This document shows positions 16,933 through 18,559 of a DNA stretch of 64,000 nucleotides, in pieces. The stretch lies in the NCBI RefSeq assembly GCF_055900595.2, contig NZ_CM148325.1, one strand, 5' to 3'. The notes under the pieces were generated by a model. It searched no databases. It was not told the DNA's origin and worked only from the letters and a program-made list of their open reading frames with translations. Both the position numbers and the translations under genes were made by a program. Every line of letters starts with the position of its first letter. Positions within the stretch are counted from its first letter, which is position 1.

Positions 16933-17148
16933 ATGAAATCCATGGATAAGTTAACAACGGGCATCGCCTACAGCACCTCTGCAGGCAGTGCTGGCTACTG
17001 GTTTTTACAGTTGCTCGATAAAGTCACGCCCTCACAGTGGGCGGCAATAGGTGTATTGGGTAGTCTGGTATTTGGCATGCTGACGTATCTGACAAACCTT
17101 TATTTCAAGATTAAAGAAGACAGGCGTAAGGTTGCGAGAAGAGAGTAA
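16933..17148 (+). CDS. Phage 21 S21-type pinholin with dual-start motif
   Basis: [31 protein letters not shown]...IKEDRRK close to S21/EssD; strong RBS GGAGGTGAGG; second ATG at 16942. Confidence 0.85.
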
Positions 17149-17152
17149 TCCA

Positions 17153-17704
17153 ATGACTCAAGACTATGAACTGGTTGTGAAAGGAGTTCGCAATTTTGAG
17201 AATAAAGTGGCGGTAACTGTAGCCTTACGGGACAAAAAACACTTTGACGGTGAAATTTTTGACCTGGACATCTCGCTGGACCGTGTTGAAGGTGCCGCGC
17301 TGGAGTTTTATGAGGCAGCAGCCAGAAGGAGCATCAGACAGGTCTTCCTGGATGTTGCTGCCGGGTTATGTGAAGGGGATGAGCAGTCGCCGGAAAAGCG
17401 CCCCATAATTTTAGAGGCGCAGAATGTGTGGATAACCTACAAAGGAAAGCTACCGGGAAGAATTACTGGTTCTCTGAAGACGCCACCGACGGCATTGCGG
17501 TCAGAAAAAGATGATATTGAATCGCCCATTGAAAAACTGGAGGGCAGCGTCGCTGATCTGAATAAAAAATTGTCGGTGCTGATTCCTTCTGAAGATGAAA
17601 AAAAACGCCGCGATGAGCAGTTTGCGGCGTTTTACGATTATTGCATTGAAGTTACTCGCAGGAATTTTGTGAAGATTTTTGAGGAGGGTAAATCTCTTCA
17701 GTAA
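17153..17704 (+). CDS. YdfR-like (DUF1327) protein with long C-terminal extension
   Basis: MTQDYELVVKGVRNFENKV... matches the YdfR N-terminus as I recall it; about 183 aa here. Confidence 0.6.
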   Translation: MTQDYELVVKGVRNFENKVAVTVALRDKKHFDGEIFDLDISLDRVEGAALEFYEAAARRSIRQVFLDVAAGLCEGDEQSPEKRPIILEAQNVWITYKGKLPGRITGSLKTPPTALRSEKDDIESPIEKLEGSVADLNKKLSVLIPSEDEKKRRDEQFAAFYDYCIEVTRRNFVKIFEEGKSLQ

Positions 17705-17912
17705 GCTTATTGGCGGACGCTGCAATTAATTCAGGAAGGTCCGCAAGGTCATCTGTCAGTGGATATGATGAAAAATCGGCGGCAGTTCTGTTAAGAAGCG
17801 CTTTAACTAATTCCTTTTCCTTCTCCGGCAACAAGTTGATTAGAGCTACGACTGCTTGCCTGAGTGCGATTAAATCAGCAAAAGTTTGTTTAGGTAGATT
17901 TGTGTAATCCAT
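17652..17912 (-). CDS. Hypothetical protein (86 aa) antisense inside the lysis cassette
   Basis: ORF with GAGG RBS 6 nt upstream of its ATG; non-repetitive sequence; 3' end overlaps the ydfR-like gene convergently. Confidence 0.45.
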   Translation of the reverse strand: MDYTNLPKQTFADLIALRQAVVALINLLPEKEKELVKALLNRTAADFSSYPLTDDLADLPELIAASANKLTEEIYPPQKSSQNSCE

Positions 17913-18025
17913 AGTCGCCTCTGTGTTTATCAGATTGACATCCTCCTCCCGCCAGTGCCCATCACTGGTGAGGTAAGATTTAACATATCCGGGGATTTGA
18001 AGCCGATAAATCCTGATAAATATCC

Positions 18026-18559
18026 ATGAACGTAAAAATCAGATACAGCCTGTCGGCCGCTGTTCTGGCACTGATTGCCGCCAGTGCTCCTGCCCCTGAC
18101 ATTCTCGATCAGTTTCTGGATGAAAAAGAGGGGAATCACACCACTGCATACCGCGATGGCTCCGGCATATGGACCATCTGTCGGGGAGCAACGATGGTGG
18201 ACGGTAAACCTGTTATTCCGGGAATGAAACTGTCGAAGGAAAAATGCGCCCAGGTTAACGCCATTGAGCGGGATAAGGCGCTGGCATGGGTGGAGCGCAA
18301 TATAAAAGTTCCACTGACCGAGCCACAGAAAGCCGGTATCGCGTCATTCTGTCCCTATAACATTGGCCCTGGTAAGTGTTTTCCGTCGACGTTTTATAAG
18401 CGGCTTAATGCCGGTGATCGTAAAGGCGCATGCGAGGCGATTCGCTGGTGGATAAAGGACGGTGGACGTGATTGCCGCATTCGTTCAAATAATTGTTACG
18501 GTCAGGTTATTCGGCGTGACCAGGAGAGTGCATTAACCTGCTGGGGGATAGAACAGTGA
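18026..18559 (+). CDS. SAR endolysin (phage lysozyme, GH24-like)
   Basis: N-terminal signal-anchor-release segment ([16 protein letters not shown]) and lysozyme motifs; follows the pinholin. Confidence 0.85.

Follow-up and report, generated by a model that had tools for sequence, protein, structure and literature searches.

Within a 64,000-nucleotide stretch of NCBI RefSeq assembly GCF_055900595.2 (contig NZ_CM148325.1; hereafter the window), which corresponds to an Escherichia coli Qin-like lambdoid prophage, the holin gene essQ and the endolysin gene rrrQ are separated by 877 bp. This gap contains a plus-strand open reading frame (ORF) of 183 aa and a convergent minus-strand ORF of 86 aa, whose product is referred to here as the antisense protein (AP). 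Based on sequence comparisons across E. coli genomes, phages, and related cassettes, the interruption may well be a module of two genes, mobile and moron-like, that was inserted into the late (lysis) operon; AP, which is paired with a partner encoded on the late strand, would be expressed in the lysogen from its own promoter. The original prediction for this region had placed a pinholin with an MKSMDK dual start and the endolysin about 900 bp apart, and both the spacing and the positions of the features were confirmed. It had further proposed that the cassette is interrupted by an antisense gene. The cassette is indeed interrupted, but the antisense gene does not stand alone; it is one half of a convergent pair that is also found after Rz.

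We analyzed whether the antisense ORF is a gene from its conservation, because an ORF of 86 codons is by itself within chance. Although the AP family at first look seemed confined to E. coli, wider searches (exhaustive and profile-based) added two subfamilies of 89–93 aa to the 86-aa type. The three subfamilies share 38–61% identity, and the homologues come from E. coli, Salmonella, and unnamed metagenome or IMG/VR viral contigs. Within the 86-aa type, substitutions are concentrated at the third codon positions of AP, and the indels that distinguish AP alleles are in frame. Since the ratio of nonsynonymous to synonymous substitution rates (dN/dS) among these closely related alleles could not separate AP from a shadow frame on the plus strand, a comparison between subfamilies was needed. 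Between subfamilies, dS was 1.0–1.5 (synonymous sites saturated) and dN was 0.3–0.5, giving a dN/dS of 0.27–0.36; the expectation that the antisense ORF should be conserved was therefore borne out across all three subfamilies, with dN/dS of about 0.3. The good ribosome-binding site claimed earlier for the minus-strand gene is also present, as a GAGG Shine-Dalgarno sequence 5 nt before the ATG, and the other subfamilies carry TAAGGA at the equivalent position, so that a Shine-Dalgarno sequence is found in every subfamily. The AlphaFold2 model of AP has a predicted local distance difference test score (pLDDT) of 75, with helices at residues 8–26, 30–48, and 56–74. Taken together, the dN/dS of about 0.3 at dS above 1, the in-frame indels, the retained Shine-Dalgarno sequence, and the coherent model indicate that, on the evidence of its conservation, AP is a genuine protein-coding gene under purifying selection.

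An alternative is that the antisense ORF arose by chance or as a shadow of another frame, and that what is conserved is a noncoding element, such as a late-operon regulatory region or terminator. The family is narrow, with named members only in E. coli and Salmonella and no known domain, and in the 86-aa type the plus-strand shadow frame (17710–17907) shares wobble positions with AP and scores similarly. However, that frame starts with TTG and has no Shine-Dalgarno sequence, whereas AP can be aligned end to end between subfamilies that are saturated at synonymous sites, retains its start codon, folds in the model into a coherent three-helix bundle, and is intact in 63 of the 64 loci surveyed, the exception (L064) being truncated. 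We regard the noncoding explanation as very improbable.

The 183-aa ORF (17153–17704, plus strand) consists of a DUF1327 (YdfR) domain and a separate coiled-coil module of about 70 aa, here called the partner. The Pfam match to DUF1327 covers residues 1–112 and model positions 1–92 of 93 (E = 4.9e-42). Thousands of E. coli genomes match this part only, ending at nucleotide 336/337 of the ORF, and the ordinary stand-alone YdfR is 114–116 aa long, terminating shortly past the residues SLKTPP. The lengths given in the original prediction, about 183 aa here and 103 aa in K-12, are both correct, but the protein is not simply a lengthened YdfR. When K-12 was aligned with a K-12-like long allele (L074), 580 bp were found to be missing in K-12, which removes AP with its leader as well as the partner tail. 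Because the junction of this deletion is only 12 nt away from the ATG of rrrQ, on its upstream side, K-12 ydfR runs into rrrQ. Judged from these alignments, the 103-aa K-12 YdfR is a derived deletion form and not the norm, and in the 183-aa ORF a normal DUF1327 domain of about 112 aa has been fused in frame to a module that stands alone in other phages. A frameshift introduced by sequencing or assembly, which the original prediction had named as a possible source of the extension, is excluded because many complete genomes that were sequenced independently, and phage isolates as well, carry the identical long ORF; the junction also stays in frame across several different fusion architectures, and we give this explanation a negligible probability.

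The annotation of this ORF differs between records. The Prokaryotic Genome Annotation Pipeline (PGAP) reports the first 336 nt alone (12305–12640 of L001, the RefSeq copy) as a pseudogene, "YdfR family, missing C-terminus," and annotates the antisense gene. In the phage records of 2H10 and PhiR63_1, the 183-aa ORF is annotated but the antisense gene is missing, and the PhiR12 record has both. As for the DUF1327 part, residues 1–72 of K-12 YdfR bind RNase E at its N-terminal catalytic domain, and the protein co-purifies with RNA and may bind it (PMC13232886, 2026). The RNase E-binding region (window 17153–17368) is well conserved in the 183-aa protein.

To describe the association between the two ORFs, we surveyed 64 loci with an AP ORF, in 63 of which both ORFs were readable. 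In all 63, a convergent ORF ends within the 3' end of AP; in the remaining locus, L064, the convergent ORF is absent. The 3' ends overlap by 53 nt in loci of the 86-aa type, including the window, and by 59 nt in both 93-aa types, and the portion of the convergent ORF upstream of the partner module is freely variable. Stand-alone partner homologues of 67 aa follow the holin (L062) and others of 73 aa follow Rz (L015, L066, and L075), and in fusions with DUF1327 the partner makes up the C-terminal part of proteins of 169, 171, 174, 176, 183, 211, and 243 aa. Within lysis cassettes, the pair is thus found after the holin (L062), after YdfR (the window and L070–74), and after Rz (L015, L066, and L075). 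Partner sequences match PHROG 36381, 15975, and 2091, and at about 30% identity they keep a tail motif, RNF.K...KS.Q, together with the N-terminal heptad pattern. Reading the final ~19 aa of the 183-aa ORF as chance read-through was considered and rejected, as the 67- and 73-aa stand-alone homologues share conserved tails and the same overlap with AP.

The module is variable in its presence. The 2.2-kb lysis cassette shows 100% identity to many independent E. coli chromosomes. Out of 5426 E. coli genomes, 201 covered at least 80% of the cassette, 293 contained the segment spanning the ydfR tail and the antisense gene, and 4379 matched some part of the ydfR-to-rrrQ interval, mostly the N-terminal part of ydfR. 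Temperate phages that have been isolated, namely 2H10, PhiR63_1, and the PhiR12 series, also carry the module, and in cassettes such as L007 and L010 the AP module is absent and YdfR leads directly to the lysozyme. The GC content is 0.41 in AP (0.36 at third codon positions) and 0.42 in the partner, against 0.49 in the DUF1327 part and 0.52 in rrrQ. With its presence and absence among cassettes, its lower GC content, its own Shine-Dalgarno sequence, and a terminator-like hairpin behind it, AP fits the anatomy of a moron as far as sequence can tell, and this moron-like architecture is the part of the earlier proposal of a prophage-expressed moron that stood; its other parts, expression in the lysogen and modulation of lysis timing, are speculative. 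Decayed variants of AP were also observed. In E. coli 08_3449 (L013, 245–1804), an IS3-family element adjoins a partial copy of the AP module that lacks the AP 3' end; the similarity to AP stops after residue 64 in P0012 and after residue 22 in P0019, where unrelated sequence takes over; and in a Salmonella copy (P0018) no more than about 25 codons of AP are left, next to which the hairpin region is joined.

Other antisense genes occupy the same position. In E. coli ZH49, the slot (L006 2311–2583, minus strand) holds a 90-aa antisense gene of PHROG 2411 that shares 35 nt with the 3' end of the gene for a 114-aa YdfR; no relatedness between its product and AP was detected by BLASTP. In two further prophages, each with a SASA-family esterase gene upstream, an antisense ORF of about 210 aa (L014 1736–2437, minus strand; L008 1918–2619) lies between the holin/DUF1327 gene and the lysozyme, in the slot equivalent to window 17489–18025. 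It has full-length homologues at 53–65% identity, two of them annotated in Salmonella, is unannotated by RefSeq in L008 and L014, and gave no match in Pfam or PHROG. This ORF overlaps the tail of a 263-aa plus-strand ORF by about 250 nt, and a partner-like domain and the same hairpin region are again found at the 3' end of the antisense gene. Partner-like domains therefore also occur without AP, beside a different antisense gene. These comparisons identify the position beside the holin, endolysin, and Rz genes of enterobacterial lambdoid prophages as a slot in which antisense cargo is carried.

We further analyzed the sequences flanking AP for signals (Table 1). The hairpin that follows the AP stop codon is a candidate intrinsic terminator, with a predicted folding energy of -17 kcal/mol on the minus strand and -23.1 kcal/mol (z = -2.96) on the plus strand, and because the plus strand folds too, it could work in both directions. 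It is found at the same place after the AP stop in all three subfamilies. In the L018/L070 type, the arms read ACGCCACC and GGUGGCGU, a compensatory change from G-C to A-U that alters partner residues from RR to RHH and from AA to VA. A terminator scan did not pick up this hairpin because its loop is 12 nt. Upstream of AP, a block of TTTATC, a 17-nt spacer, and TATGTT or TATTGT is invariant across the three subfamilies, including post-Rz loci that have no adjacent endolysin start, and TTTATC-17-TATGTT is a candidate AP promoter in the window. The AP leader also holds a perfect palindrome, possibly an operator or a leader hairpin; the Salmonella-type subfamily keeps its core, GTGGTGGG.CACTG.

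Table 1. Features of the lysis cassette in the window and of the module between essQ and rrrQ.
Feature	Position	Strand	Description
essQ	16933–17148	+	Class II (phage-21 S-type) holin, 71 aa; PHROG phrog_9876 and phrog_20; RefSeq essQ / class II holin
DUF1327 (YdfR) domain	17153–17488	+	Codons 1–112 of the 183-aa ORF; Pfam PF07041
Partner module	17489–17704	+	Codons 113–183; predicted helical/coiled-coil, about 70 aa, fused in frame to DUF1327
Candidate intrinsic terminator	17598–17633	-	Hairpin AAAACGCCGC-12 nt-GCGGCGUUUU, then UUUU; begins 18 nt past the AP stop
AP	17652–17912	-	Acidic protein of 86 aa (pI 4.6) without signal peptide; three-helix bundle predicted
AP Shine-Dalgarno sequence	17918–17921	-	GAGG, 5 nt upstream of the AP ATG
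Palindrome in AP leader	17952–17968		CCAGTG-N5-CACTGG, perfect
Candidate sigma-70 promoter of AP	17982–18010	-	-35 TTTATC (18010–18005), 17-nt spacer, -10 TATGTT (17987–17982)
rrrQ	18026–18559	+	GH24 endolysin, 177 aa; PHROG 7
rzpQ	18556–19053	+	i-spanin, DUF2514; PHROG 312 Rz-like spanin; K-12 annotation
rzoQ	~18749–19003	+	o-spanin embedded in rzpQ, +1 frame, lipobox-like LTSC; K-12 annotation

If these signals function as proposed, a weak sigma-70 promoter belonging to AP, situated in the 113-bp spacer directly ahead of rrrQ, would drive its transcription, and the transcript would end at the hairpin. Having its own putative promoter and a hairpin end, AP could, like lambda bor, be made in the lysogen without need of the antiterminator Q. 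In the lytic phase, RNA polymerase modified by Q would pass the hairpin and cross AP in the antisense direction; AP would thereby be switched off through convergent transcription and the RNA overlap of 53 nt, and the YdfR-partner fusion would be made alongside the lysis proteins. AP most likely would work by binding another protein, and the partner tail is the most economical candidate target, since AP and the partner strictly co-occur.

Several observations weigh against a moron-like pair with a self-expressed AP. A consensus promoter scan found no sigma-70 promoter for AP, the candidate element scoring under the scan's threshold, and the proposed -35 matches the consensus at only 3 of 6 positions. 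The promoter block is also present upstream of the endolysin in cassettes without AP, and it may for this reason serve the endolysin instead. A strong U-tract (U7–8) follows the hairpin only in the E. coli 86-aa type and is weak in the two 93-aa subfamilies, and the hairpin falls within the most conserved peptide motif of the partner, KKRRDEQFAAF, so that constraint at the RNA level is not fully separable from constraint at the protein level. Comparison of the AP model with PDB and BFVD gave no significant structural neighbour. A fusion of the partner to AP through a (GGGGS)6 linker, modelled by AlphaFold2 with a paired alignment, reached a pLDDT of 44.5 and a predicted template modelling score (pTM) of 0.24, giving no support for a complex. 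Finally, PGAP classes the 183-aa ORF as a truncated pseudogene, and the dN/dS of the partner between subfamilies is 0.4–0.9, indicating weaker constraint than on AP.

The last two points, together with the position of the hairpin in the best-conserved partner motif, are also what would be expected if only AP mattered and the partner tail were a non-functional stretch in which the late ORF upstream (YdfR, or a short ORF behind the holin or Rz) runs on to the next stop through the terminator and 3' end of an inserted antisense moron, the 183-aa ORF then being a chimeric, effectively truncated YdfR. In-frame deletions in the coiled coil are tolerated (variants of 171 and 176 aa), and the C-terminal part of YdfR may be dispensable, as residues 1–72 suffice for RNase E binding (PMC13232886). 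However, the partner ORF is open in all 63 readable loci with its stop at a constant position relative to AP, stand-alone partners have their own ATG either directly after the holin or overlapping the Rz stop, and dN/dS within the 73-aa subfamily is 0.34 (L015 vs L066). The tail motif and heptads retained at low identity also argue for a functional protein. An arrangement in which AP alone matters is therefore a possibility that we consider unlikely, and we continue to favour the two-gene module.

How the two products of this module might act on each other is more speculative. One reading, which we hold only tentatively and consider improbable as it stands, is that AP and the partner constitute a two-component switch built on convergent genes with overlapping 3' ends. 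AP made in the lysogen would neutralise the late partner or YdfR-partner protein and thereby set lysis timing or protect the lysogen. Under such a scheme, RNase E or the lysis proteins might be the route by which the late protein acts, each state would exclude the other by means of the overlapping RNAs and the hairpin that they share, and the lysogen would be guarded against leaky late expression.

A related explanation is that AP and the partner are an antagonist pair acting on lysis or cell fate, resembling a toxin and antitoxin or a holin and antiholin, with the 3' overlap giving reciprocal antisense control. The late partner or YdfR-partner could, for instance, modulate lysis or the decay of RNA, and AP made in the lysogen would be its inhibitor. 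The pair co-occurs strictly in the examined loci with a conserved overlap geometry, always lies within lysis cassettes, and is joined in the window to a DUF1327 domain whose K-12 counterpart binds RNase E in its catalytic part and possibly also RNA (PMC13232886). On the other hand, neither protein is hydrophobic or nuclease-like, no PADLOC, toxin, or antitoxin family was matched, the fusion model gave no sign of a complex, and partner-like domains occur without AP. An antagonist pair of this kind thus seems rather doubtful to us.

Searches for function returned little beyond existing hypothetical families. AP matches PHROG 2572 over 86 of 86 residues (E = 4e-53), and both proteins are already present in databases as hypotheticals (PHROG 2572 for AP and PHROG 2091 for the partner); a description of the gene pair was not found in the literature searched. 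No Pfam, NCBIfam, or PADLOC match was found for AP. At E ≤ 1, PADLOC gave no match for AP, the partner, or the 183-aa ORF, and NCBIfam gave none for AP or the 183-aa ORF. Across Pfam, NCBIfam, PADLOC, and PHROGs, AP and the partner yielded "unknown function" at most. The anti-CRISPR protein AcrIIC4 was the top non-designed match to AP both by sequence profile (E = 0.12) and by Foldseek (E = 4.5, TM 0.33); as hhalign gave a probability of 9%, this likeness is not claimed.

The remaining genes of the cassette have recognizable relatives. The N-terminus of EssQ, MKSMDK, provides a Met1/Met4 dual start, and the N-terminal segment of RrrQ is rich in Ala and Ser and resembles a signal-arrest-release (SAR) segment. 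Relatives of RrrQ in the PDB are the phage 21 lysozyme (3hde/3hdf, E = 4e-16) and RrrD (4zpu). By homology, EssQ would form pinholes and RrrQ would undergo SAR release. In the 25 nt upstream of rrrQ, no recognisable Shine-Dalgarno sequence was seen. The rrrQ leader (window 17975–18025) is a conserved segment of about 50 nt with a tandem GATAAAT repeat (CCGATAAATCCTGATAAATATCC-ATG), and this leader precedes the endolysins of many cassettes, whether or not an antisense gene is present.

In the RefSeq copy of the locus (L001), the order of genes is the Q antiterminator, cargo genes for lipocalin, YbgA-family, and AraC-family proteins, and essQ. Onward, it continues with the "YdfR family" pseudogene, the opposite-strand hypothetical protein, rrrQ, rzpQ, and cspI, followed by terminase, head, and tail genes. 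The cargo between the Q antiterminator and the holin (window 14663–16832) has a low GC content and includes a YbgA-family protein (14663–15622) and an AraC/YdeO-like regulator (16020–16742, GC 0.34). A clean intrinsic terminator (16811–16832) lies about 100 nt ahead of essQ. The same position, from the Q antiterminator to the holin, is occupied by stx in Stx phages. Elsewhere in the window, five Rfam matches exceeded the gathering score, namely DicF, sok, a cspA-type thermoregulator before cspI, STnc490, and STnc560 (4061–4112, 9712–9886, 19259–19675, 40633–40756, and 56544–56757). An E-value scan of 16700–19300 with Rfam found no known RNA family.

These results have several implications. The recognition of K-12 ydfR as a deletion remnant corrects the lore of the reference genome, and the conflict between the PGAP pseudogene and the 183-aa protein of the phage annotators, in which the antisense gene is often missed, is resolved. 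A conserved and portable two-gene module is defined. If AP is expressed in lysogens, it would be a further lysogenic-conversion or regulatory gene, with carriers making up about 5% of the E. coli genomes. The connection of YdfR with RNase E (PMC13232886) gives a concrete handle on whether the fused form acts differently.

Among the closest known systems is the essQ-ydfR-rrrQ-rzpQ/rzoQ region of K-12 Qin, a comparison that the original prediction had proposed. The locus and gene order are the same, and the holin, the N-terminal DUF1327 domain, the endolysin, and the spanins are orthologous, whereas K-12 lacks the 580 bp that contain the partner tail, AP, and the AP leader. At the protein level, residues 1–112 of the window ORF correspond to the full DUF1327 domain of YdfR, and the window copy differs in its additional coiled-coil module of about 70 aa.

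In comparison with the S21/R21 cassette of phage 21, the endolysins R21 and RrrQ belong to the same GH24 family, and the window cassette also contains spanins. EssQ is closely related to S21 and shares its Met1-Lys-Ser-Met4 dual start, a comparison that also draws on the S21-like holins in L072 and L074. In phage 21, S and R are adjacent, whereas in the window two extra genes lie between the holin and the endolysin.

Finally, AP resembles bor of phage lambda in being a small gene opposite to the strand of the late operon, in or beside the lysis cassette, with presence and absence among related phages and a base composition unlike that of its neighbours. In lambda, bor is located immediately after Rz, and the Salmonella-type AP genes (L015, L066, and L075) likewise directly follow Rz. 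The products differ. No hydrophobic leader or lipobox was seen at the AP N-terminus (MDYTNLPKQTFADL), and no match to Bor was found in Pfam or PHROG. Whereas Bor is a lipoprotein with a signal peptide and lipobox, AP lacks both, and the prediction for it is an acidic bundle of helices in the cytoplasm; unlike bor, its gene is always paired with a convergent, overlapping ORF on the late strand.

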